From contig NC_086108.1 in assembly GCF_963921235.1 (NCBI RefSeq), positions 45,510,001 through 45,574,000 of the forward strand: a DNA stretch of 64,000 nt, given 5' to 3'. The translations under genes were made by a program, and so were the position numbers. Source of the DNA: Mobula hypostoma. Its lineage: Eukaryota. The notes under the pieces are model-generated. The model was not told the DNA's origin. It did no database searches and saw only the letters and a program-made list of their open reading frames with translations. This document shows, piece by piece, positions 6,846 to 38,039 of this stretch; the stretch's first letter is position 1, and the number at the start of each line of letters is the position of its first letter.

Positions 6846-8098
6846 CATGCAGCCCTGAATGAATGGTGTGAAGTGGTTCAGTGTGCTGGACTTGAGGAGT
6901 GCATATTAGCAGATCCCCATGAGTGAGGCCAACAAAGAGAAAATGGCATTTAGATGTCCTCTGGGATTTTCCCAGTTTGAAAAGATGCCCCAGGGCATCT
7001 CGGGAGCTCCTGCAACCTTCCAGCGGGTCATGGAGAAAATGATGGGGGATATGAACTTGCTTGAGGTATTGGTGTATCTGGCTGACCTCACAGTGTTTGG
7101 ATCCACCTTGGAAGAACGTGAAGCGAGGCTACTGAAGGTGCTGGGCTGCTTGAAAGCTGAAGGGTTAAAACTTTCCCTGGACAAGTGCCAGTTCTGCAAG
7201 ACGTCTGTTAGCTACGTTGGGCACATAATCTCATATATTGGAGTAGCTACAGATCCATCTAAGACAGAGGCAGTGACCACCCGACAGGGCGACAGACTCC
7301 AATTGAAAACCACAACAAGTCTCGACCCGGTGCCCTGATCCTGATACAGTACACCCACTAAGCCCTCTCTGCTGGCATCCGTATGCAGTACATACGGCAA
7401 TCTGGGGTCTGCAAAAACCAGCATCTCCTTCAGCAACTGAAAGACCTCTTCACATTTCACATCCCACCTCAGTCCAAAAGGGCTAAGATACTCTTTACCC
7501 TCCTCTCCTTTTGTCCTCCTCCCTTGCTTCCCCAAGGGAGGGTAACCACACAGACCCGGTTTCAACAGGTGACTCACTTTCGCATGGCCCGTCACGAACC
7601 TCCAATAGTAAGCACAGACCCAAGGAACGAGTGCAAAGTGCTCACAGTCTCAGGCCTTGGCCGGGTGGTCACTGCCTCTGTCTTAGATGGGTCTGTAGCT
7701 ACTCCAGCTATGAGATTATGTGCCCAACGTAGCTAACAGACGTCTTGCAGAACTGGCACTTGTCCAGGGAAAGTTTTAACCCTTCAGCTTTCAAGCAGCC
7801 CAGCACCTTCAGTAGCCTCACTTCACGTTCTTCCAAGGTGGATCCAAACACTGTGAGGTCAGCCAGATACACCAATACCTCAAGCAAGTTCATATCCCCC
7901 ATCATTTTCTCCATGACCTGCTGGAAGGTTGCAGGAGCTCCTGAGCTGCCCTGGGGCATCCTTTCAAACTGGGAACATCCCAGAGGACATATAAATGCCA
8001 TTTTCTCTTTGTTGGCCTCACTCATGGGGATCTGCTGATATGCACTCCTCAAGTCCAGCACACTGAACCACTTCACACCATTCATTCAGGGCTGCATG
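6846..8098. repeat. Inverted duplication of about 435 bp of the Gypsy RT
   Basis: About 6846-7281 (+) is the reverse complement of about 7664-8098. ORFs 6919-7338(+) and 7708-8085(-) give nearly identical peptides. Confidence 0.92.
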
Positions 8099-8819
8099 TC
8101 TTAGATTCTTGGGACTGTATACTGGTTGGGGATGGTACACCTGTTCAGAGTCCTATAATCCACACACATCCGTACCTTCCCATTCTTCTTTCTGACCACT
8201 ACTATTGGGGACACATAGGGGCTTCGGGACTCGGTGAAGGTCATGCTGCTGAACGTCTTCCACCTCATCAGGGGCCAGATGCCACAAGCTCTGTCTGAAC
8301 GGGACGTCTTTGGTCACCCAGGTAGTGTGACGAGTGCTTATGGAACAACCCACATCAAACTCGTCAGTGGAAAAGACACCTTCCAGCTTCAACATCTTCT
8401 CTACCAACCTCCTCTTCCAACGCACAGGAACCGGGGAGTCCCTGAGGTTGAATGGCTCAGTGGTCAACTTGTTCCCCTTTACAGAGGGTTTCTCCCCGGC
8501 TTGTCTCACTTGGACACTAGACATTACCGTCACCGGAATCAGATGCGCCAGGGGCATCCGCCACTTGAAAGTGGCCTCCCTCTTCATTGTGTTCCTGACA
8601 ATCACTGCCATCCTGTTTGCCTGTACAACCGAGGGCTTCTGCAGCTCGGGCCTCACCAGGAACCCAGCAGGTAATCCCGACTCCTCCACATGGTCTTCCG
8701 GAGCGCCCGCTGAGAGGCCTTGCCCTCAGGGGTTCTGGGAAATTTGGAGGTCCCCATCACTCTCGTAACTTCCCTGGGCCGTAACACGATTGGCTTTAAC
8801 TGGGTGAACCACACAGTGT

Positions 8820-23429: not shown

Positions 23430-25378
23430 CTAAATAAGAATGTGTTCTGTTTTATATTGGGTTTGGTCCTCCCTGCCAAGGAGAAGATAATTCCAGCTAA
23501 CAAAATAGTTTAACACACAGTCCATTTCTTTTCAGTGATACACATTCTATAAAACACATTTAAAACTCACAGAGAATTTCTAACTTAAACAATTATTTCC
23601 CAATTACAAACTATTTCTAAAACATTTCTTAAACTCAAAGGATTTCCAAAACTTAGGTACAATTGCTGTAAACTAAAACAACATATCATGATGCCGATGA
23701 GTCATTCGTCCTTCACAGAAACTGAAGCTAAAGGAATAGATTCTATTCACCCCATCTTCCTATCATTTTTCTTGATGTTCTTCAATCACTCCTAATAAGC
23801 CTGAACTGATCTCTATATCTATACCTTTTTTTCTGTCACTTGGGTGACTTCACATGCATATGATATTTCCTCAGATGCCCTTTCAACACAAACGGTCTAA
23901 AAACACTTTGGAGACATAGTTCTTATACTTTATACTTCATACTTTATTGTCGCCAAACAATTGGTACTAGAACGTACAATCATCACAACGATATTTGATT
24001 CTGCGCTTCATACTCCCTGGATTACAAGTATTAAATATTAAAGATATTAAAAATAGTTAAAATTAGTAAATATTAAAAATTTAAATTATAAATCATAAAT
24101 AGAAAATAGAAAAATGGGAAGTAAGGTAGTGCAAAAAAACCGAGAGGCAGGTCCGGATATTTGGAGGGTATGGCCCAGATCTGGGTCAGGATCCGTTCAG
24201 CAGTCTTATCACAGTTGGAAAGAAGCTGTTCCTAAATCTGGCCGTACAAGTCTTCAAGCTCCTGAACCTCCTCACGGAGGTAAGAGGGACGAAAAGTCTG
24301 TTGGCTGGGTGGGTTGTGTCCCTGATTATCTTGGCAGAACTGCTCCGACAGCGTTCGGTGTAAAGTGAGTCCACTGATGGAAGATTGGTTTGTGTGATGT
24401 GCTGTGCCGTGTTCACGATCTTCTGCAGCTTCCTTCGGTCTTGGACAGGACAACTTCCATACCAGGTTGTGATGCACCCTAGAAGAATGCTTTCTACGGT
24501 GCATCTATAAAAATTAGTGAGGGTTTTAGGAGACAGGCCAAATTTCTTTAGTTTTCTCAGGAAGTAAAGGCGCTGGTGGGCCTTCTTGGCAGTGCACTCT
24601 GCATGGTTGGACCAAGTCAGGTCACTTGTGGTATTGACTCCGAGGAACTTAAAGCTTTTGACCTGTTCCACTTGTGCACCACCGATGTAAATTGGGTCAT
24701 GTTGTCCGCTACTCCTTCTGAAGTCAACAACCAATTCCTTCGTCTTGCTGACGTTGAGGGATAGGTTATTGTCTTCGCACCATGCCACCAGGTTCTTAAT
24801 TTCCTCTCGGTACTCAAACTCATCATTACCCGAGATGCTACCTACTATTAATGTTTCAAAGCTGTGAAACTAACTTCCTTCAGTACATAAAACCTTCCAA
24901 TTGTAAACACATCATAGTTACAGATACACTAAATAATATTATCCGTTTGTTCTTCAAGCTTCCTTGAACCAAACAACTTAAGAATCAACTTGTCTGTTTG
25001 AAACAATCCAAATTAAACAACCCATTGTCTTAGCAACACACACAAAAAATTCTGGTGAACGCAGCAGTCCAGGCAGCATCCATAGGAAGAAGCACAGTCA
25101 ACATTTCAGGCTGAGACCCTTCGTCAGGACTAACTGAAAGAAGAGATAGTACTGGTCTTTAGACAATACTTGTTTTAAGCCCAAGGTGATTAGTGCTTTC
25201 CATTTACATTTCAAGAACTGTAGACAGACTTCCCTTTACAACCAGAAGTCAAACAACTGTTAGTTGGAAATGTATTTATATCTATTTGTGATCTTACAAG
25301 TGGCAGGTACCGTGATTAGAAAGCAAGATTAGGTAATGACCAAGAGGCCTACTGGCCATGAAGTGAATATCCATCACA
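23430..25378 (-). mobile_element. Foamy-type LTR U3 (about 0.9 kb once the nested LINE and Penelope pieces are removed)
   Basis: Begins TGTGATGG at 25378 directly after a purine tract (cf. PFV AGGAGAGGG|TGTGGTGG). It has an AP-1 site TGACTCA (23698-23704) and TATAAAA (23450-23456). A second partial copy lies at 35146-35308. Confidence 0.6.
23925..24845 (-). mobile_element. Young 5'-truncated Rex1/Babar LINE inserted in the foamy U3
   Basis: Uninterrupted 200-aa ORF 24186-24788 (WCEDNNLSLNVSKTKELVVDFR...RFRNSFFP). The flanks are contiguous in the second LTR copy at about 35205-35215. Confidence 0.92.
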
Positions 25379-25398
25379 ACCTCTCTCCCCCCACCCCC
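25379..25398 (-). promoter_or_regulatory. Polypurine tract
   Basis: Minus strand GGGGGTGGGGGGAGAGAGGT immediately precedes TGTGATGG. Confidence 0.65.
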
Positions 25399-25901
25399 AA
25401 CTGCTAAGTGAAGATTTCTAACCCAGATTTTTCTTACCAAAATCAGCTTGGAGATCAAAACTTCTGCCCAGGCTCCTCTTGGCAACAGACCATCACACCT
25501 CTATTGATTCCAGTAGATTGCCAGAGCTAGTAAAGGCTCTCTTTGCTCTTCAATCTGATGCTCAAAAGTAAGCATTAAGTACTTCCCAATGTAATCCTTG
25601 TGTAATTTTCTCGTGAGAGTATTCACTTCTTCAATCTCAGTTGGTCACTTTTCCCAAATCTCAGAATCTGAATCAAAGGAATCTCAAAAAAAGTCACCAT
25701 TATAATTTCATAAACACATGACCGTAATGTATCAATGTCTATATTATAAGTCCATCTTAGTTTACCTTTAAAATCTTCTTCCCACAAACAGTTCTTGTCA
25801 TTTTCTTGACGCAAATTCAAATCACTGTCTCTGTCACCATTTTTCATCAGATCAGCTGTCAATGTCTCTCAATAAGCTGAAGGTAATTCATCTCTTTCCA
25901 T
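25380..25901 (-). pseudogene. Decayed accessory ORF upstream of the PPT, running toward U3 (bel2 position)
   Basis: MERDELPSAY*ETLTADLMKN...CLWEEDFKGKLRWTYNIDIDTLRSCVYEII, then after a frameshift EIEEVNTLTRKLHKDYIGKYLMLTFEHQIEEQREPLLALAIYW...LPRGAWAEVLISKL. Long open stretches, but no family recognised. Confidence 0.45.
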
Positions 25902-26676
25902 AGAGATGTTTGCACTGCTTCATATGGTACATTACTTTACTCAGGTATCCTGAAAAGTCTCATCAACAAGTTACTGATTGTGCTTTTGCTATCCTCTTTT
26001 GCCTAAAGATTAGTAATCTCACATCTTACTTATAGGACGTTATATCCATCAGTTACATTATTTCACAATATAATAATATACATAAGAAAATGGAACACCT
26101 ACAAAAGTAAGCAATTCGCCTGAGTACAAAGAGTACAATTCGCCTGCTGAGAATCCTGTACCTTTAATTCTAAATTCCCAGAGAGAGAAAAAAAATGTCA
26201 CAATGTAGGGATTGGTTATGTCCCTCCCAGGGAGTGAATACACATTGATATGCTGGAATTCAACATTGTGACACCAACTATACCACCTACATAAGTCTGT
26301 TCCCATTTTAGTGATTCTAGACTCTGCATAAAATCATTTATCTTCCCACTTTACTTTGTCAAGTATTAGACTCGACTGAGAAGAATTGACACATTTTCCC
26401 AATTTCTGTGTTTTCCCAGAAAATTCTAACTGAGCAAGACTACGAAGTCTGCTCTGTCAAACCATGGGATTTTATCAACTAAGTATAGAAATTGTTCTAG
26501 TGACATTAAGTATAACACAAATATGGGGGGTGAGGGTGCGGTGTGGGCATTGTAGATTCTCATTACGTGATTATGATTTTGTGTGTGCTTACTGTGCATG
26601 ACTATTGGTAATGTGTCTTTGTACCTTGACGCTGTAGTAATGCTGACTCATTTGCCTGTATTTATGTTAAATGACA

Positions 26677-27449
26677 TGTTATCTGTCTTGTGAGTATCTC
26701 CTGAGCATGATGTAATTATCTTGTGAGCATGATGTAATTATCTTGTGATGGGCATGATGTAATTGTCTCATGATAGCAGGATGATGTGATGTCATGTGAT
26801 GGCATGTTCCAACCGGTATAAAGGGGAAACCATAGTCTGTTGCGTAGGTGTTTTGTTGGGGAGTCACAGTTGGTGGTTACGCAATTGCAAAAGGAGAAAG
26901 AGAGAGAGAAAGAAAGAGTGAAGTTTGCGGGCTTTGAACAATCCCTATGGATTGGTGTTAATCAGAGGCATTCAGCGCATTTCGGGGGTGACTGACGCTT
27001 GGCACAATCCATACGTGGCACGCAATTTTGTTAACCCTTACATGGTTTGAGTGTTGTGTGGTCACCACTTCGGCGAAAGGTCAGTTACTTTGAGAAAACT
27101 CACTCTTTGTAGTCTCTTCGGAAAAAGGTATTTCTTGGCTGGAATCTGCGTCTGCAGTTTCGTCTATGCTTCAGGAATTGATCGCTGGTTCAAGAAATCT
27201 CTCCCCTCACTTATTTCATAAATCATATGGACTTATTAAATTACCACCTTAAGACTGTGCTTAAGTAAGATCTGTTAAGAATTGTCTTTAAGTTCGACTG
27301 TTTGATAACCGACGCATAACACTATTAACTTCCGTTTAAGTTAGTTGTTTGTTTATTTTTTGATGTTTTAGAGTAGAGGCTAATAAATTTCATTGTTTAT
27401 TTATAAAAACCCAACTCAATTTCATATCTATTACTGCTGGTACATAACA
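26677..27449 (+). mobile_element. Solo LTR, 773 bp, nested in a LINE tail
   Basis: TGTTAT...ATAACA termini with a perfect 4-bp TSD GACA (26673-26676 and 27450-27453), TATAAA near 26817 and AATAAA near 27382. Confidence 0.88.
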
Positions 27450-27825
27450 GACAAGTAAACTTGAATTGAATGGAATTGAATTGTAGGAGTACCACATACA
27501 CAATATATATTTATACCCAGATTGTAAGCAAATAACAAACACATTCAAATTGTTCTACCTTGTGACAATATAACATTTTATGGACTTTGGGGGTCCTAGG
27601 ACTACATTTCTGTTTCCAAATAACTTACTACAAAACAAGTAAAGAGTACAGCATTCCTCAGGGGAAGCTACAGTATCTTTCTCCTCCTGGTAAGTCTTTT
27701 ACCATGCTATAACATAACACACATAATATAGAAACATAGAAACATAGAAAATAGGTGCAGGAGTAGGCCATTCGGCCCTTCGAGCCTGCACCGCCATTTA
27801 TTATGATCATGGCTGATCATCCAAC

Positions 27826-30762
27826 TCAGAACCCCGCCCCAGCCTTCCCTCCATACCCCCTGACCCCCGTAGCCACAAGGGCCATATCTAACTCCCTCTT
27901 AAATATAGCCAATGAACTGGCCTCAACTGTTTCCTGTGGCAGAGAATTCCACAGACTCACCACTCTCTGTATGAAGAAGTTTTTCCTAATCTCGGTCCTA
28001 AAAGGCTTCCCCTCTATCCTCAAACTGTGGCCCCTCGTTCTGGACTTCCCCAACATTGGGAACAATCTTCCTGCATCTAGCCTGTCCAATCCCTTTAGGA
28101 TCTTATACGTTTCAATCAGATCCCCCCTCAATCTTCTAAATTCCAACGAGTACAAGCCCAGTTCATCCAGTCTTTCTTCATATGAAAGTCCTGCCATCCC
28201 AGGAATCAATCTGGTGAACCTTCTTTGTACTCCCTCTATGGCAAAGATGTCTTTCCTCAGATTAGGGGACCAAAACTGCACACAATACTCCAGGTGTGGT
28301 CTCACCAAGGCCTTGTACAACTGCAGTAGTACCTCCCCGCTCCTGCACTCAAATCCTTTCGCTATAAATGCCAGCATACCATTCGCCTTTTTCACCGCCT
28401 GCTGTACCTGCATGCCCACTTTCAATGACTGGTGTATAATGACACCCAGGTCTCGTTGCACCTGCCCTTTTCCTAATAGGCCACCATTCAGATAATAATC
28501 TGTTTTCCTATTTTTGCCACCAAAGTGGATAACTTCACATTTATCCACATTAAATTGCATCTGCCATGAGTTTGCCCACTCACCCAACCTATCCAAGTCA
28601 CCCTGCATCCTCTTAGCATCCTCCTCACTGCTAACACTGCCGCCCAGCTTCGTGTCATCCGCAAACTTGGAGATGCTGCATTTAATTCCCTCATCCAAGT
28701 CATTAATATATATTGTAAACAACTGGGGTCCCAGCACTGAGCCTTGCGCTACCCCACTAGTCACCGCCTGCCATTCTGAAAAGGTCCCGTTTATTCCCAC
28801 TCTTTGCTTCCTGTCTGCTAACCAATTCTCCACCCACACCAATACCTTACCCCCAACACCGTGTGCTTTAAGTTTGCACACTAATCTCCTGTGTGGGACC
28901 TTGTCAAAAGCCTTTTGAAAATCCAAATATACCACATCCACTGGTTCTCCCCTATCCACTCTACTAGTTACATCCTCAAAAAATTCTATGAGATTCGTCA
29001 GACATGATTTTCCTTTCACAAATCCATGCTGACTTTGTCCGATCATTTCACCGCTTTCCAAATGTGCTGTTATCACATCCTTGATAACTGACTCCAGCAG
29101 TTTCCCCACCACCGACGTTAGGCTAACCGGTCTATAATTCCCCGGTTTCTCTCTCCCTCCTTTTTTAAAAAGCGGGGTTACATTAGCCACCCTCCAATCC
29201 TCAGGAACTAGTCCAGAATCTAAAGAGTTTTGAAAAATTATCACTAATGCATCCACTATTTCTTGGGCTACTTCCTTAAGCACTCTAGGATGCAGACTAT
29301 CTGGCCCTGGGGATTTATCTGCCTTCAATCCCTTCAATTTACCTAACACCACTTCCCTACTAACATGTATTTCGCTCAGTTCCTCCATCTCACCGGACCC
29401 TCTGTCCCTTACTATTTCTGGAAGATTATTTATGTCCTCCTTAGTGAAGACAGAACCGAAGTAATTATTCAATTGGTCTGCCATGTCCTTGCTCCCCACA
29501 ATCAATTCACCGGTTTCTGTCTGCAGGGGACCTACATTTGTCTTTACCAGTCTTTTCCTTTTTACATATCTATAAAAGCTTTTACAGTCCGTTTTTATGT
29601 TCCCTGCCAGTTTTCTCTCATAATCTTTTTTCCCCTTCCTAATTAAGCCCTTTGTCCTCCTCTGCTGAACTCTGAATTTCTCCCAGTCCTCAGGTGAGCC
29701 ACTTTCTCTGGCTAATTTGTATGCTTCTTCTTTGGAATTGATACTATCCCTAATTTCTCTTGTCAGCCACGGGTGCACTACCTTCCTTGATTTATTCTTT
29801 TGCCAAACTGGGATGAACAATTGTTGTAGTTCATCCATGCAACCTTTAAATGCTTGCCATTGCATATCCACCGTCAATCCTTTAAGTGTCATTTGCCAGT
29901 CTATCTTAGCCAATTCACGTCTCATACCTTCAAAGTTACTCCTCTTTAAGTTCAGAACCTTTGTTTCCGAATTAACTATGTCACTCTCCATCTTAATGAA
30001 GAATTCCACCATATTATGGTCACTCTTACCCAAGGGGCCTCTCACGACAAGATTGCTAATTAACTCTTCCTCATTGCTCAAAACCCAATCCAGAATAGCC
30101 TGTTCTCTAGTTGGTTCCTCGACATGTTGGTTCAAAAAACCATCCCGCATACATTCCAAGAAATCCTCTTCCTCAGCACCTTTACCAATTTGGTTCACCC
30201 AGTCTACATGTAGATTGAAGTCACCCATTATAACTGCTGTTCCTTTATTGCACACATTTCTAATTTCCTGTTTAATACCATCTCCCACCTCACTACTACT
30301 GTTAGGTGGCCTGTACACAACTCCCACCAGCGTCTTCTGCCCCTTAGTGTTACGCAGCTCTACCCATATCGATTCCACACCTTCCCGGCTTATGTCCTTC
30401 CTTTCTATTGCGTTAATCTCTTCTTTAACCAGCAACGCCACCCCACCTCCCCTTCCTTCATGTCTATCCCTCCTGAATATTGAATATCCCTGAACGTTGA
30501 GCTCCCATCCCTGGTCACCCTGGAGCCATGTCTCTGTGATCCCAACTATATCATAATCATTAATAACAATCTGCACTTTCAATTCATCCACCTTATTACG
30601 AATGCTCCTTGCATTGACACATAAAGCCTTCAGGCGCTCTTTTACAACTCTCTTAGCCCTTGTACAATTATGTTGAAAAGTTGCCCTTTTTAATGCTTGC
30701 CCTGGATTTGTCGGCCTGCCACTTTTACTTTTCTCCTTTGTACTTTTTGCTTCTACCCTCAC
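27826..30762 (-). CDS. CR1 ORF2, 978 aa, APE endonuclease plus reverse transcriptase
   Basis: Uninterrupted ORF with NARSI, GITETW, VYRPP, GDFN, SDH, YRPVSL, YLDFQKAFDKV, QGSVLGP and FADD motifs. Confidence 0.97.
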   Translation of the reverse strand: MRVEAKSTKEKSKSGRPTNPGQALKRATFQHNCTRAKRVVKERLKALCVNARSIRNKVDELKVQIVINDYDIVGITETWLQGDQGWELNVQGYSIFRRDRHEGRGGGVALLVKEEINAIERKDISREGVESIWVELRNTKGQKTLVGVVYRPPNSSSEVGDGIKQEIRNVCNKGTAVIMGDFNLHVDWVNQIGKGAEEEDFLECMRDGFLNQHVEEPTREQAILDWVLSNEEELISNLVVRGPLGKSDHNMVEFFIKMESDIVNSETKVLNLKRSNFEGMRRELAKIDWQMTLKGLTVDMQWQAFKGCMDELQQLFIPVWQKNKSRKVVHPWLTREIRDSINSKEEAYKLARESGSPEDWEKFRVQQRRTKGLIRKGKKDYERKLAGNIKTDCKSFYRYVKRKRLVKTNVGPLQTETGELIVGSKDMADQLNNYFGSVFTKEDINNLPEIVRDRGSGEMEELSEIHVSREVVLGKLKGLKADKSPGPDSLHPRVLKEVAQEIVDALVIIFQNSLDSGLVPEDWRVANVTPLFKKGGREKPGNYRPVSLTSVVGKLLESVIKDVITAHLESGEMIGQSQHGFVKGKSCLTNLIEFFEDVTSRVDRGEPVDVVYLDFQKAFDKVPHRRLVCKLKAHGVGGKVLVWVENWLADRKQRVGINGTFSEWQAVTSGVAQGSVLGPQLFTIYINDLDEGIKCSISKFADDTKLGGSVSSEEDAKRMQGDLDRLGEWANSWQMQFNVDKCEVIHFGGKNRKTDYYLNGGLLGKGQVQRDLGVIIHQSLKVGMQVQQAVKKANGMLAFIAKGFECRSGEVLLQLYKALVRPHLEYCVQFWSPNLRKDIFAIEGVQRRFTRLIPGMAGLSYEERLDELGLYSLEFRRLRGDLIETYKILKGLDRLDAGRLFPMLGKSRTRGHSLRIEGKPFRTEIRKNFFIQRVVSLWNSLPQETVEASSLAIFKRELDMALVATGVRGYGGKAGAGF

Positions 30763-30864
30763 TTTACACCCCTCTGTCTCTCTGCACTGGTTCCCATCCC
30801 TCTGTTGTGAACTAACCTCCTCATGCCTAGCCTCTTTAATTTGACTCCCACCCCCGCAACCATT

Positions 30865-31299
30865 CTAGTTTAAAGTCACCTCAGTAGCCCCCGCTAATCT
30901 CCCTGCCAGGATATTGGTCCCCCTAGGATTCAAGTGTAACCCGTCCTTTTTGTACAGGTCACGCCTGCGCCAAAAGAGGTCCCAATGATCCAAAAACTTG
31001 AATCCCTGCCCCCTGGTCCAATCCCTCAGCCACGCATTTATCCTCCACCTCATCGCATTCCTACTCTCACTGTCGCGTGGCACAGGCAGTAATCCCGAGA
31101 TTACTACCTTTGCGGTCCTTTTTCTCAACTCCCTTCCTAGCTCCCTATATTCTCCTTTCAGGACCTCATCCCTTTTCCTACCTATGTCATTGGTACCTAT
31201 ATGTACCTCGACCTCTGGCTCCTCACCCTCCCACTTCAGGATATCTTGGACACGATCAGAAATATCCCGGACCCTGGCACCAGGGAGGCAAACTACCAT
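30865..31299 (-). CDS. CR1 ORF1 C-terminal SGNH esterase-like domain, 5'-truncated
   Basis: CLPGA, HIGTND and DGLHLN..G motifs directly upstream of ORF2. Confidence 0.9.
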   Translation of the reverse strand: MVVCLPGARVRDISDRVQDILKWEGEEPEVEVHIGTNDIGRKRDEVLKGEYRELGRELRKRTAKVVISGLLPVPRDSESRNAMRWRINAWLRDWTRGQGFKFLDHWDLFWRRRDLYKKDGLHLNPRGTNILAGRLAGATEVTLN

Positions 31300-31809
31300 C
31301 CGGATATAGTAAGATACATGGTGTTAAAAGTCAAAAGTGTAAATCATTATTATATAATGCCATCATTAGCAATAAATGACACATTTACAAAAGTACATTA
31401 TATAAAATCTAAGAATATACTGTATATAAAAAGTTTCCCATGTTAAAAAGTAAATATGGAACATCCAAAGAGGTAAGTGAAAAATAATGTTTGTCATTTC
31501 ATCTTTCTGTGGATTATGTTATTAAAGCAATTATTTACAACAGATGTATCCCAACTCCCCTACCCCTAAAATGAGGCGTGAAACTTGCTTACCCACACAC
31601 ACCAGTGATCAACACTAGGAAAAGGAGAGGAGCAAGGATAACATGATCAGGATTGTCCCTGCTTCTCACTTTTCCAGGGCTAGGATGAATCAGAAGAATA
31701 GGTAAACAGGCGAGAACAGGGCATGGGAAAACAAAGCAGTCATATGAGAGGTAACACGTGGTAGTGCAGATCAGGTATGGGAATTAACAACGACACAGGA
31801 GTGGAGCCA

Positions 31810-34800
31810 TCTGCACAGACCTCAACATTTCAGCAAAGAGAACACTACAAAAAATTAATTCCAATTGCTATGGGAATTGTCCATTGGAAAACTGAGAAAA
31901 AACATGTCACCCGATTTAAAGTAGCACAAATCCACCCGGAAACTATATTCGCTACTGCGGAAGCTAGGTTTATAACAGCTGGAAATGACTAAGCTATGGT
32001 TTCAGCTAAATATTAAGCCAGTCAAGGGCTTAGTCTGAATCTCCAAAGAAACCTTGTGAAAGGAGGTGCTTTTTTCATCTGACTGTAACTCTCATAATGC
32101 ATACAGTAATATTCTTTTAATAGGGTTTCTTCTAGCCATTGTCAGCAAACATCAAATCCTTCTGGAACATTCTTTGTTCTGCATCCATCGTGAATCATTC
32201 CTTAAAACTAGACTTGCATCTCCGTTTCGCAGCATAGGTTAAATCATCAAATTACTCCAAGAGTCATTTCCCTCTTAAACCTTAGAAAGTAGGTGATACT
32301 CTGATGACAGTGTGTCTGAACAGCTTTCGTCATCAGAAATTTCTGCCTTCTGAGTGAACCAAAGGGTCACATCAGTGCTATTATGAGAGTGTGCATGACT
32401 GTTCAAGTAATTTTACACTAATATTTTAAAAATCATCAAAACTTTTAGGGCTGAATCATGTTTTTCTTCTGCCTATTGATGGTAACACCATGTAACTGAA
32501 TATACAGCAATAATTCAAGGCTTTCTGTGTATGTAACATTGTCTACTTAGGAAGTAATGTTACTATATCTGTGTAAGCCCAAAATTTAGCATTACCAATT
32601 GGTCTCTGACTAAAATATGTCATAGACATGTGTCCCCGTTTTCCAAGTTATAGCACGTCTATTTGAAATATAATTGAATTCATAAGGACACCAATAATTC
32701 TGGATAGTTACAATTTTCATTCTAAGGTATTATTTGCACCACAGCACGAACCATTCACAACTGTTTCATTAAATGAGATAGGAAATCTGGGTAGATACAA
32801 TAGGCTATGGGACGAAAATCTCTAAAAAGGTTATTGGACTTATCGGTTTCAGTTGACCAAGAAGGAAAACATTTTTATTTCATCTTACATTCTGCTTCAG
32901 TGCATCTTTTCATTTTATCTTCCCATGCAGAAACCCGGATCAAGGGCTTCAATGAACCATCTGGAACATAACCCAGAAGGGCAGAAAATTGCCCTGCTAC
33001 ATTGATGTGTAACAATGAAGGAAAAAAGTTGCCATAATTGAGAAAAATGGAGACATCTAAAATCTTCATAGCAAGTATGTTCATATACTTGTAGGTGATA
33101 AAGGGAGAGTGCAATGAGATATATGTCTAAAGTAGAAATCTGCATTAAAAAAAATGGGTTTTCACAATGTTCCAGCCCTAACGGTTTCAATGTCATGTTT
33201 CCATGTGTGGGATCATTCAATGACATAGCAGTGTCTATACATTTCTTCAAGTGTAGTGGGATCCATGTCAAGAAATTCTTCTATCGGTTTATCAGTATCT
33301 GAGCTGGAATCTTTCAGTTTGTTAGGGCAGCAGTCCCCAACCACCGGGCCGTGGACCGGTACCGGGCTGCAAAGCATGTGCTACTGGGCCGTGAGGAAAC
33401 GATATGAGTCAGCTGCACCCGTCACACCCACTGTTGAGCCATTACGCACGCGAGGTCATTACCCGCGCGTCATCCATGTCAGCGCGGGAAGGAGATCAAC
33501 TCCTTAAGCTTGCAAATGACGGCAGGCTGAAAGGTATGTTTGACATAACATCTCTGCCGGCATTCTGGATCAAAGTCAAGGCTAAATATCCTGAGATAGC
33601 TGTGAAAGCACTGAAAACGTTGCTTCCATTTCCAACATTTTTCTGTGAAGCGGAGTTTTCTGCAATGAATGCAAGGAAAACTAAATTGCGGAATAGACTG
33701 GACATAAGGAACCCCATTCGAGTATCGCTGTCTCCCCTCACCCCTCGATAGGACCGTCTTGTTGCAGGAAAACAAGCCCAGAGCTCCCACTGATTCAGTG
33801 ATATTGATGTGTTGCAATGATTTTATATGTTCATACGGGGAAAATATGTTCTGTGTGTTTAATATCCAAACGTTACTTAAAATGTTATGATGCTATTTAC
33901 TTATAAGTGACTTATATAACCATATAACAATTACAGCATGGAAACAGGCCATCTCTGCCCTTCTAGACCATGCCGAATGCTACTCTCACCTAGTCTCACC
34001 GACCTGCACTCAGCCCATAACCCTCCATTCCTTTCCTGTCCATATACTTATCCAATGTTTCTTTAAATGATAATATCGAACTTGCCTCTGCCACTTCTGC
34101 TAAAAGTTCATTCAACACTTACTTCAAGCTCCCCTGTCCTCGCCTGATAATTGACTTATCACTATATTCATACGAGGAAAATATGCGTTGTGTGTTTAAT
34201 ATTAAATTTGTTAGATAAACCCTTCTGGAAATGAAATTGAGTGTATTAGCTACTTATCACCTATATTCCGGTTGTGATTAACACACACCCCACCCGAACA
34301 GAATCGCCAAAAACGATTTGCAGAAAAAAAAATCGGCAGGTACACGCATGCACACTGGTGCCCGCGCAAGGCTTCAGGGTCATTGTAGTCTTTCTCGGGG
34401 TAAACACAACGTATTTGACTGCTACTCTTGTCCGTTGGCAACCCTACCCCCCCCATCTCCCCCCCACCGGGTCGGCTGGTCCGCAAGAATATTGTCAATA
34501 TTAAACCGGTCCGCAGTGCAATAAAGGTTGGGGACCCCTGTGTTAGGGTGTTATTGATAATTTCTGCTAGTGGTTCTTTGCCTTCCCTTGCACCTACAGT
34601 ATGTTCATTTCATCTGTAATGCAGTCAGAGTGTATGTTCGAGGCAAGGATTAAAGTTTCCAGTGAATTAGTTCCCATATCACCAAGAGGTAAGGGCCATT
34701 TAATGATATTTAAAATAGAATCATCGTAGCTCACGATCCCCTTAAACCAATATTCACTAAGTCATTAAGTTTTATGGGTGTCCAAGCACTAATATTAAAA

Positions 34801-34880
34801 GTAAAAAAACTGGAAAAACAACATTTCTTTTTGGAATTTGAGTTTGTCTTAGTCTAAAAACAACACATTTTGAATATGTT
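31810..34880 (-). pseudogene. env: Endogenous foamy virus env D (end of leader, SU, furin site, TM with internal deletion, membrane anchor), interrupted by a hAT
   Basis: Collinear with PFV Env: PVF-TFNIS (PVIDWNVT), KEPLAEIINNTL (KKLLTEMVNEEM), EMYRHCYVI (QEFANCYLV), YGNFFPSLLHINV/SRAIFCPSGLCSRWF (LGSFYIPSSLRQINVSHVLFCSDQLYSKWY), SNNLFRDFRPIAYCIYP..ISFNET (KNALFREINVLDICSKP..ILLNTS), RFKR at 32282-32271, and DWL-YLAETIA*SFPAVINLASAVANIVSG...TIPIAIGI (AWIQQLAAATKDVWPAAASALQGIGNFLSG...KPILIGV). Confidence 0.85.
33328..34540 (+). mobile_element. Internally deleted hAT (Charlie-like) transposon inserted in env
   Basis: TIRs CAGCAGTCCCCAACC and GGTTGGGGACCCCTG, perfect 8-bp TSD TGTTAGGG (33320-33327 and 34541-34548), dimerisation-domain remnant FWIKVKAKYPEIA..ALKTLLPFPT..CE..FS. 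Confidence 0.93.
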
Positions 34881-35145
34881 ATCCCTGGTGAATCTGTGGA
34901 ATTCATTGACACATTTGGCTGTGGAGGCCAAGTCACTTGGTATATTTAAGGCAGAGGTTGACAGATTCTTGATTCGTCAGGGCACAAAGAGATACGGGAA
35001 GAAGGCAGGAGATTGAGCATGAGAGGGAAATGGATCAGCCATGATGAAATGGGACAGCAGCCTCGAGCCAAATGGCCTAATTCTGCTCCAATGTCTTATG
35101 ATCCTATGGATCAATGAAGTCTTCCTAAAGTAAGCCAGGATATTT

Positions 35146-35308
35146 ATTGGAAGGTTTTATGCACTCAAGGAAGTTAGCTTCACAGCCTTGCAGCATCAGT
35201 GGTAGGTAGCTGAAGAACTATGTCACCAAAACGCTCCTTAACTGTTTGTGTTGAAAGGACATCAGAGGAAATATCATATGCATGTGAAGTCAACCAAATG
35301 ATGGAAAA
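35146..35308 (+). mobile_element. Second, inverted fragment of the foamy U3
   Basis: Aligns to the reverse complement of 24841-24901 plus about 23828-23923, with roughly 24 mismatches in about 157 nt by hand count. It lacks the Rex insertion. Confidence 0.88.
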
Positions 35309-35319
35309 GTGATATCACC

Positions 35320-35625
35320 TAATGAAAACCTGCACACCATGTGTGGAATAGCCCTTAATCAGCACCCTATACATGAATCAATGCAGGCTGTGAACGAGAC
35401 CCTGCACACCCACATGGTGGTAACACGATTGTCGGTCATTCTTGCACAAGGATCCAGCACAGGGTCCTCCCCTTTTCTCTCTAAGGTAAATATAGAGTCT
35501 GCAGGATTCATTCAGACTCTACAAGGAATCCCAGATGTTTGTGCGTATGTTGATGAGGAATACTGTACAGCCAGCATGCTGGATGAGCATTTAACACAAA
35601 CTGAGACTGTCATTAAGAGAGTGAG
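35320..35625 (+). pseudogene. Decayed LTR-class reverse transcriptase fragment (spuma-like or Gypsy)
   Basis: HPIHES...LAQG...LQGIPDVCAYVDEEYCT...DEHL...ETVIKRV; the YVDD motif has become YVDE. Confidence 0.7.
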
Positions 35626-36399
35626 CAGCAGCAGTAGTGACCGGCTTTGTGGCTGTGAACTCACTTATTGAAATTTAGTTTTGAATGTTATTTGCTTACT
35701 TTTATTTTTTGCACAGTATGTTTTGCAAATTGGGTATTCAACGGTCTCCTTTTTTAATGGGTTCAGTTGGGTATCTTTGGCTGCTGTTAGGAGACAAATC
35801 TCAAGATTATACATAGTATACATACTTTGATAATAAATGTACTTTGAACTTTGAATTTTGTTTCGACTTAATTATCTGGTCATTTGATTACTTGTGCTAC
35901 CATGCTTGATGAATCATTTGGTTGATACCAGTTTAGTGAGTAACCGTTTGGTTAAGGATGCAGCTACTGAAACTCCAGACGGCAAGAGTTAAGCAGGCAG
36001 CCAAAATGTTTGGGTTCCATAGATTTTGCTCCGTTCAGTTCTCTCAGTTGTTACTTTTGGCACTTTGAGTGGACTGAATTAATTGTAGACTGACTTCTTT
36101 AATGGAGGCCCAGATGGTGGATAAAATTGCAAAGTGCTTCACTTCTTTCTTTGGCAATCACATCACAGAGAATGAGGATATCTTTGGTCTTGTCTTCATG
36201 GCAGCTGTTTATTTATCCTCCATCATTTCCAACTGGATGTGGCAGGGCTACAGAGCAGTGATATGATCTGCTAATTGTGAATTTGCTTAGTTATGCTTAC
36301 AGCCTTCAGTTCTCACAAGTGTAATTCCTTCTGTGACTCCATCACGTTGGCGCCTCAGCTTCAGTTACACCTAAACTCAATAAACACCAATTAGCAGAG

Positions 36400-36990
36400 A
36401 GAAGCTGTTGGGCATCTTGAAGTGCGTTAAGGTGGATATATCCCCAGGGTCTGACCTAGTAAATTCTTGGACTTGACAGAAGCTGGGGAAGATTTTGCAG
36501 AAGCCCTTAAGAAATTTTTGCTTCATCTCTAGCCACTGGTGAGGTTCTGGAGTACTGGGGAGCGGCTAATATTGCAGCATTTTTTGAAGAGCTCTGCAAA
36601 ACATGCTACTAGCCAGAGAGTCTGACGTGGGTTTTGAGTAAGTTGCTGGAGGGGATTCTGAGGGACAGGATCTACCAATATTCAGAGAGACAATTTCTAA
36701 TCTGGGAGAGTCGGCACGGGTTTGTGCAGGGAAGTCATATCTCACAAATCTTTTGAAGTTCTTCGAAAGGTAATCACGAAGGCAGAGGAGGGTAGGGCAG
36801 CGGTCGTTGTTTACCTGAATCTTAGCAAGGTGTCTTACAAGAACCTAAAATGCGGGCTAGTCTGGAAGGTTAAATTGCATAGGAAAGGTCTAGGAAAAGG
36901 AAGTGGATTGGTTCATAGTTAGCCTAGTGATAAGAAGCAGAGGGTGGTGGGTGAAGGTTGCTTCTCAAGCTGGAGGCCTGTACCTCGTGG
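36400..36990 (+). mobile_element. Decayed CR1 RT fragment ending in a minisatellite
   Basis: RHGFVQGSHISQI, VVYLNLSK and VGEGCFSSWRPVPRGVP. Confidence 0.75.
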
Positions 36991-37831
36991 TGTACCACTG
37001 GGGTGTGCCACTAGTCGTGTACCACTGGGGTGTGTCACTAGTGCTGTACCACTGGGGTGTGCCACTATTCCTGTACCACTGGGTTGTGCCACTAGTCGTG
37101 TACCACTGGGGTGTGTCACTAGTGCTGTACCACTGGGGTGTGCCACTATTCCTGTACCACTGGGTTGTGCCACTAGTCGTGTACCACTGGGGTGTGCTGC
37201 CAGTGCTGTACTACTGGGGTGTGTCACTAGTGCTGTACCACTGCGGTGAGTCACTAGTACTATACCACTGGGGTGTGGCACTAGTCGTGTACCACTGGGG
37301 TGTGTCACGAGTGCTGTACCACTGGGGTGTGCCACTAGTCGTGTACCACTGGGGTGTGTCACGAGTGCTGTACCACTGGGGAGTGCCACTAGTCGTGTAC
37401 CACTGGGGTGTGTCACTAGTCGTCTACCACTGGGGTGTGTCACTAGTTGTGTACCACTGGGGTATGCCACCAGTGCTGTACTACTGGGGTGTGTCACTAG
37501 TACTATACCACTGGGGTGTGCCACTAGTCGTGTACCACTGGGGTGTGTCACGAGTGCTGTACCACTGGGGTGTGCCACTAGTCGTGTACCACTGGGGTGT
37601 GTCACGAGTGCTGTACCACTGGGGTGTGCCACTAGTCGTGTACCACTGGGGTGTGCCACTAGTCGTGTATCACTGGGGCATGTCACTAGTGCTGTACCAC
37701 TGGGGTGTGTCACTAGTGCTGTACCACTGGGGCGTGTCACTAGTGCTGTACCACTGGGGTGTGTCACTAGTGCTGTACCACTGGGGCGTGTCACTAGTGC
37801 TGTACCACTGGGGTGTGCTGCTAGTGCTGTA
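36980..37831. repeat. 27-bp minisatellite, about 31 copies
   Basis: Unit GTACCACTGGGGTGTG(C/T)CACTAGT(CG/GC)T with variants. Confidence 0.97.
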
Positions 37832-38039
37832 CGTCCCATACTTAATAAAGTGGCCACTGGGTGTATTTTTGTTTTCTTCTGCTGCTGTAGCCCAAATTTC
37901 ATTGTGCTGTTTGTTCAGAGATGCTCTTCTGCGTATCACTTGTAATGAGTGGTTACTTGTGCTACTGTCGTCTTCCTGTTGCCAACTAAAGCATCAAGCC
38001 AGACTAAAATTTATATTTAAAAAAGTTAAATTAAGTAAG

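Follow-up and report, generated by a model that had tools for sequence, protein, structure and literature searches.

The fossil record from which the age of retroviruses is judged consists mainly of endogenous foamy viruses. In cartilaginous fish, an endogenous foamy virus was reportedly described by Wang, Chen and Cui (2023, J Virol) from sharks and rays, and is said to carry canonical motifs and a Pol basal to that of other vertebrate foamy viruses. A further element, to judge from its name that of a catshark, which we take to be the host, has been classed as a spuma endogenous retrovirus (ERV). This catshark-coded ERV is described as having neither Gag nor Env domains (PMC10699275), while the chimaera element CmiFLERV, likewise a foamy-like ERV of a cartilaginous fish, is presented as detected by pol alone and as lying outside the tetrapod/coelacanth foamy clade (PMC5512871). 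The endogenous foamy viruses (EFVs) of coelacanth (CoeEFV), amphibians, reptiles and birds are described with the layout LTR-gag-pol-env-accessory-LTR (LTR, long terminal repeat) and an Env related to PF03408 (PMC3386198, PMC5512871, PMC6955096, bioRxiv 2020.12.18.423569), with a full-length Env reported for coelacanth (1016 aa; PMC3386198) and sea snake (env of 2949 nt; PMC6955096). Germ-line invasion by foamy viruses has been called rare (PMC3386198).

The stretch of DNA analyzed here (the window) comprises 64,000 nucleotides of the ray Mobula hypostoma (contig NC_086108.1, positions 45510001 to 45574000), and family matches to a foamy-like unit on its minus strand (23469 to 34888) were sought across the 3.48-Gb assembly. 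By its sequence, the family to which the unit belongs is an endogenous foamy virus (Spumaretrovirinae), and its env lacks about 270 codons. Overall, we think it probable, though well short of certain, that the unit is the decayed 3′ half of such a virus and that the family arose in one germ-line burst from an env-deficient master. Like the exogenous mammalian foamy viruses (16 genomes), the family has a surface (SU) and a pre-membrane transmembrane (TM) part of Env, a Gag central domain, Pol, a Lys-type primer site and a purine tract followed by a TG(T/G)-type LTR start; unlike them, it shows neither a conserved furin motif where one was sought nor TATA enrichment where the internal promoter is expected, and its LTR is ∼1.1 kb long with a U3 that would measure ∼0.5 to 0.6 kb. 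Its short env sets it apart from CoeEFV and the sea snake EFV, and a mammalian-type Env and Gag signal sets it apart from CmiFLERV as the latter is described. The initial annotation of this DNA knew of no ray or shark element of this layout; by title, a cartilaginous-fish endogenous foamy virus is already in print, and the present family may well be one of the lineages of Wang et al. That env is short throughout the family, and that a frameshifted sub-master spread, both seem to be new observations, as no description of an env-shortened foamy family was found in the literature on foamy elements and env loss, though Wang et al. may hold one. A ray family with a true foamy Env and Gag signal would provide a data point near the root of the foamy viruses; less expected would be dozens of copies from a short-env master, and more from a frameshifted sub-master.

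Env homology and foamy identity of the family

Two pieces of the window unit make up what is left of env:

34549 to 34888, minus strand: env, 5′ piece, leader peptide and start of SU (paralogue matches upstream of env)
31790 to 33327, minus strand: env, main piece (profile scores, tile scan and backward extension)

Reference foamy genomes were located by primer-site motif, and the 16 exogenous genomes with a foamy layout were used to build an Env profile (a Pfam check covered the Env of 5 of the 16). Scoring was performed with our own frameshift-tolerant profile script, with dinucleotide shuffles as the null. The main piece of the window scored 33.0 bits against reference residues 232 to 400 (60 shuffles: 18.1 ± 2.0, 0/60 as high; wrong strand: 20.0; reversed profile: 18.6), and 25 of 26 paralogues scored above all 12 of their own shuffles. 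Lentiviral and betaretroviral Env profiles remained mostly at shuffle level, with single-copy maxima of 25.1 and 23.8. Because the copies share ancestry, the paralogue scores amount to repeated noisy reads of one signal. Taken alone, the 5′ piece scored within the shuffle range. A tile scan across 27 copies placed 13 of 64 tiles above the 95th percentile of 83 null tiles, of which 10 lie in order at 3 nt per residue (reference 166 to 405 at 34560 to 32724; 947 to 976 at 31824). Backward extension from the anchor supports reference residues 913 to 953, and the C-terminal anchor is therefore more than a hydrophobic run. The main piece, which carries numerous stops and frameshifts, thus reads as SU (reference 181 to 405 at 33330 to 32720), a short middle that does not map, and a pre-membrane helix and anchor (reference ∼913 to 976 at ∼32020 to 31820). 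The 5′ piece begins near reference residue 55, reference tile 166 to 195 ends at ∼34560, and ∼90 nt near 34785 that paralogues hold are absent. The Env with foamy SU and TM anchor proposed in the initial annotation is confirmed at the level of profile comparison, the env piece being homologous to foamy SU and to the pre-membrane and anchor part of TM.

Searches of sequence libraries with single frames of the window gave no Env match, so frameshift-tolerant scoring was needed to recover the Env signal. Three env frames and one paralogue open reading frame (ORF) found no foamy match among PDB sequences; 5.8 billion proteins searched with two env ORFs and one pol frame, and 1.84 billion representative proteins searched with one env frame, gave no matches; a protein atlas gave no usable match and metagenome loci none. 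When reference Env was compared by hmmsearch and tblastn to the unjoined segments of the window, three ordered matches were obtained (independent E value [iE] 0.15 to 4.5), none of them significant.

Other parts of the genome agree on the foamy identity of the family. The Gag central domain scored 43.3 bits in copy L004 (shuffle maximum 18.7), 23.5 versus 18.1 in L002 and 21.3 versus 20.1 in L011, with L010 at the null. Pol scored 226 and 212 bits in paralogues, and all eight PDB matches of a paralogue integrase ORF were to prototype foamy virus integrase. In a reverse transcriptase (RT) tree of 33 rows (L011 was dropped as too short, breaks were filled with X, and the outgroup was labelled gypsy by assumption), two family copies were sister to 10 mammalian foamy viruses (ultrafast bootstrap 92) and apart from lentiviruses, betaretroviruses and three other RT lineages of the genome. 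A decayed primer site of tRNA-Lys1,2 type follows the CA end of three 5′ LTRs (L010, L011 and L105); the window, lacking a 5′ LTR, does not contain the site. A 4-bp target-site duplication (TSD), a feature of foamy viruses, flanks the sole provirus with both ends mapped (L004/L003).

The foamy RT query also recovered at least three other ERV lineages on several contigs (L079 to L092), which are younger than the foamy family and fall outside the foamy clade. Two of these copies, L088 and L089, are 97% alike over 9.6 kb, and L088 has a class I-type integrase end and a TM motif that we likewise take to be class I-type. As a source of full-length foamy env the other RT lineages were rejected (14 loci, scattered scores and no ordered signal).

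A shortened env in every measurable copy

A foamy env is expected to have 1578 nt from reference residue 405 to residue 931; the window has 757 nt. The anchor-to-anchor length was 731 to 796 nt in all 16 copies with one uninterrupted alignment, so that env is ∼270 codons short in every measurable copy (16/16); the remaining examined copies are interrupted by deletions or insertions and hence fall outside this count. Across 32200 to 31990, 23 copies are continuous at 206 to 232 nt. By comparison, Env has 979 to 990 residues in the 16 exogenous references. The initial annotation had noticed neither this family-wide shortfall nor an inverted remnant at 35149 to 35668 (see below). Eight of the larger extra stretches inside the env of interrupted copies proved to be other repeats, with one of the eight marginally above its shuffles through 10 residues in an out-of-order place. 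Two copies, L016 and L074, were considered as holders of the missing TM part and rejected, the inserts being a high-copy repeat and a small element with inverted ends.

Because reference residues 406 to 900 are unmapped, we infer the place of the loss from its surroundings. The middle of Env gives only a weak signal, at reference 493 to 533, and the clear signal starts again at 913, which places the loss between them; the missing part would then be reference ∼535 to 890, which takes in the SU/TM junction and the greater part of the TM ectodomain. In the solved foamy Env structure, the furin site, the fusion peptide, the central helix and the bulk of the TM ectodomain all fall in this region, and the fusion core lies after the furin site (PMC11468914). 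The RFKR at 32282 to 32271, which had been read as a furin site, is private to the window: R-x-K/R-R occurs in 0 of 27 paralogues spanning the site in any sense frame, and in 4 of 1016 other windows of the piece. An intact fusion-competent foamy Env has ∼980 to 1020 residues with a whole TM ectodomain, and a furin site; neither such a length (16 copies) nor a conserved furin site at the RFKR position (27 paralogues) was found.

Copy number and mode of spread

Matches to the env-like piece were scored at 40 of 361 candidate places, of which 37 were examined, and the family has at least 38 copies in the genome. The SU region of 28 copies gave a star-like tree (internal branches 0.18 versus terminal 4.18, mean tip 0.15). 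Jukes-Cantor divergence between the window and other copies was 0.24 over 43 alignments, and divergence within one LTR pair was 0.165. The one supported clade comprises the window, L001 (C1) and L028 (C58), united by 11 diagnostic substitutions in 659 columns and by a 5-nt indel near 32710 lacking in 25 other copies; the window and L001 share an additional 2-nt indel. Flanks of these three copies have only dispersed repeats in common, and segmental duplication was rejected as the source of the subclade, there being no common unique flank in the stretches examined. A common frame-breaking indel combined with separate flanks points to a sub-master with a broken env that was copied to three places. 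Among sequencing runs, no RNA dataset with the element was listed.

In the reading that we favor, the master genome would already have lost a working env before the burst. Its shortened Env would have kept leader peptide, receptor-binding part and anchor, presumably with no membrane fusion, and copies would have arisen via intracellular retrotransposition driven by the Gag and Pol of the element itself (alternatively, an intact virus would have helped), after which a frameshifted sub-master would have seeded further copies. It has been stated that env-less ERVs proliferate more readily (bioRxiv 2021.11.23.469661, citing Magiorkinis 2012), and primate foamy genomes are reported to retrotranspose inside cells (PMC3705263, PMC3814592). 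If retrotransposition is indeed the route, the family would supply natural evidence for a process that reviews deem possibly peculiar to primate foamy viruses (PMC3814592, PMC3705263). MuERV-L, too, is described as a burst of copies that kept their gag and pol while env was lost or broken. Intracisternal A-particles (IAP) are likewise env-deficient amplified ERVs; unlike both, the ray family has a foamy virus as its parent and has kept both ends of env.

Several observations weigh against this reading. The Env signal is modest and comes from a custom script: 3 of the 13 above-null tiles are out of order; Pfam on 12 single frames of the window returned 0 families; PF03408 matched 1 of 17 natural paralogue env ORFs, below threshold (E = 0.0017, profile 339 to 394), and a genome-wide PF03408 search with a strict filter returned nothing, its control being likewise silent. 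Reference 406 to 900 could not be mapped by tiles, pooled scoring or anchored extension. In the RT tree, rows were fitted to the foamy profile, the family was represented by 2 copies only, and the references included no foamy-like elements from fish or amphibians. No full-length parent was seen among the 37 examined copies, which come from the 40 of 361 candidates that were scored. Gene conversion could mimic the subclade pattern. Of the 7 gap runs that copies have in common in SU, 4 are multiples of three (private runs: 10 of 65; env middle: 1 of 9), a hint of coding constraint in SU. Finally, feline foamy virus is reported to retrotranspose poorly (PMC3705263, PMC3814592).

Ranked second among the possible explanations is that the env-deleted genome was a defective passenger, to which a co-infecting intact foamy virus gave Env (perhaps also Gag and Pol) in trans, with repeated reinfection of the germ line leading to fixation of the shorter genome. 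Since foamy budding is reported to require Env (PMC3705263), such help has its appeal, and the star-like tree is compatible with one short epidemic; nonetheless, no helper with a full-length env was seen among the 37 examined copies or downstream of the 14 other RT loci, and as the frameshifted subclade arose after ∼0.05 substitutions per site, the helper would have had to persist. We regard this scenario as unlikely, though it deserves to be taken seriously. Ranked third is that the short env is native, i.e. that in cartilaginous fish an early-branching foamy lineage made do with a compact but working Env of ∼715 residues, in which leader peptide, receptor-binding part and membrane anchor were retained, and spread by ordinary reinfection. 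The same short form in all measurable copies and the lean of SU gap runs to multiples of three (4/7) would fit a native Env, and the env middle could perhaps be too divergent to map rather than deleted. Yet the exogenous, coelacanth and sea snake Envs are all of the full lengths given above, a conserved basic cleavage motif was found in 0 of 27 paralogues at the site tested, the fusion core of the solved structure lies after the furin site, and the subclade with a frameshifted env spread nonetheless. We consequently give a native compact Env little credence. Were it true, it would imply a different fusion architecture, or an Env for budding only, as ∼270 residues used for fusion by all known foamy Envs would be absent.

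The possibility that the family is merely foamy-like, or another class III or lokiretrovirus-like ERV whose Env likeness is due to chance or composition, appears more improbable still. It draws on the fact that no library search reached the Env cut-off and that Tas, Bet and internal-promoter signals all went undetected (see below); on the other hand, ordered Env tiles extend over 240 SU residues with controls at the null, and Gag central domain, Pol, primer site, 4-bp TSD and RT tree agree on a foamy virus. A decayed foamy provirus, from a burst of an env-deficient master that copied itself within cells, accordingly stays our preferred account.

Structure of the interrupted provirus

The non-repeat pieces within 23469 to 34888 (minus strand) form a single multi-copy family and are collinear by paralogue comparison. 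Besides the two env pieces, the unit consists of the following features:

33328 to 34540: hAT-type DNA transposon remnant in env with a CR1 3′ scrap inside (8-bp TSD, terminal inverted repeats, empty paralogue site)
31310 to 31789, minus strand: accessory-position stretch, piece 1 (common to paralogues)
27732 to 31303, minus strand: young CR1 LINE (long interspersed nuclear element) insertion (ORF content, 6-bp TSD)
27478 to 27731, minus strand: accessory-position stretch, piece 2 (common to paralogues)
26521 to 27477: unrelated solo LTR (26677 to 27449, TG...CA) nested in a short repeat remnant (4-bp TSD)
25400 to 26520, minus strand: accessory-position stretch, piece 3 (common to paralogues)
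25379 to 25399, minus strand: polypurine tract (purines precede the LTR start in the window and at three paralogous 3′ ends)
25152 to 25378, minus strand: 3′ LTR, start of U3 (TGTGATGG; 5′ LTRs of L004 and L011 start at the same base)
25032 to 25151: scrap in U3, presumably Penelope-type (high-copy 120-bp piece)
24859 to 25031, minus strand: 3′ LTR, middle of U3 (paralogue match)
23926 to 24858, minus strand: LINE 3′ end in U3, presumably Rex-type (RT C-terminus; absent from L003, L008 and L011)
23469 to 23925, minus strand: 3′ LTR, end of U3, R and start of U5 (paralogue homology)

The initial annotation had proposed a collinear minus-strand unit once the insertions are removed, and this is borne out by L008, which aligns to window positions 34786 to 34541, 33325 to 31304, 27740 to 27478, 26507 to 25184, 25032 to 24858 and 23923 to 23497 with the order kept and has none of the inserts (hAT, CR1, solo LTR, Penelope, Rex). 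Neither of the two outcomes that the initial annotation had named as refuting it, a lack of Env alignment or a lack of collinearity, was obtained when copies were compared singly. All three TSDs that it listed are present: 8 bp around the hAT (33320-27/34541-48, plus terminal inverted repeats), 6 bp around the CR1 (27726-31/31304-09) and 4 bp around the solo LTR, whose host site is the short repeat remnant. Empty hAT and CR1 sites are frequent among the 26 mapped env-bearing copies, and the solo-LTR site is empty in L008, L009, L012-14, L019, L028 and L032. The remnant at 33328 to 34540 has no Pfam match, and we assume it to be a hAT from its pattern of TSD and terminal inverted repeats. The CR1 copy is a young insertion into an old provirus, with an open ORF2 of 1012 codons encoding endonuclease and RT (27826 to 30864, minus strand) and the end of an esterase ORF1. 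The window copy was broken by later insertions (hAT, CR1, solo LTR, Penelope and Rex) and by deletions at both ends, and has neither its 5′ half nor the final 210 to 230 nt of its LTR. No present coding function was detected in the window copy.

LTR, polypurine tract and accessory-position stretch

A polypurine tract followed by TGTGATGG was correctly annotated, the true LTR start being the second TGTGATGG (25378), behind the purine tract; the 5′ LTRs of L004 and L011 begin at that base behind unrelated flanks. The TATAAAA at 23456 to 23450 that had been assigned to U3 lies past the end of LTR homology (23469) and is therefore unrelated flank outside the provirus. An AATAAA at 23520-31, found in 5 of 6 paralogues and decayed in the window, identifies the last LTR piece as R/U5. 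Judged from a TATA-like site at ∼23820 (an exact match in 1 of 5 copies), U3 would measure ∼506 nt in the window and ∼0.6 kb in L008. Given the position of this site and a total LTR of ∼1.1 kb across the family, U3 would be short, and not long as had been supposed; in the reference foamy genomes, the primer site lies at 1062 to 1763. The AP-1 motif also attributed to U3 (23704 to 23698) is private to the window and occurs in no paralogue even when one mismatch is allowed.

From env to LTR, the stretch measures 1877 nt in the window and is present family-wide, which agrees with the accessory region of ∼2 kb in the initial annotation; accessory genes could not be upheld, as no Tas or Bet signal clearly above shuffles was found in the 10 accessory-position stretches scored. 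The accessory ORFs of coelacanth and amphibian EFVs are likewise described as without likeness to Tas or Bet (PMC3386198, PMC5512871). A TATAAAA internal promoter is present at Env codon 879 to 891 in 16/16 references; in the ray family, no TATA enrichment was found near its expected position (∼32090), which is at the edge of the unmapped part of env. An internal-promoter TATA is also stated not to have been found in the stork EFV. In the provirus on C91 (L003, 7320 to 7499), env joins the 3′ part of the LTR almost directly, the entire accessory stretch being deleted.

Inverted remnant and other features of the window

Beside env, and separated from it by a CR1 scrap (34886 to 35108), lies a second piece of the family in the opposite orientation:

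35149 to 35668, plus strand: inverted foamy-family remnant (pieces of U3, gag and RT fused in that order, no spacers)

This 520-nt remnant matches the foamy Pol profile (iE 1.7e-4). At each of the 39 other scored places, at most its U3 part is found, and the combination is thus likely the result of a local rearrangement, which perhaps involved the 5′ half of this very provirus. A U3-first query returned 562 candidate places versus 361 for the env query, and the excess reflects many further LTRs, probably including solo LTRs.

Elsewhere in the window, an RT-bearing element at 6846 to 8313 contains a 390-nt inverted repeat at 98% identity (6846 to 7235 and 7709 to 8098), both arms of which match Pfam RVT_1; its structure suggests either an internal inversion-duplication or an artefact of assembly. 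At 36844 to 37926, a 27-nt unit is repeated in tandem ∼40 times, and both strands of the array contain long open frames.

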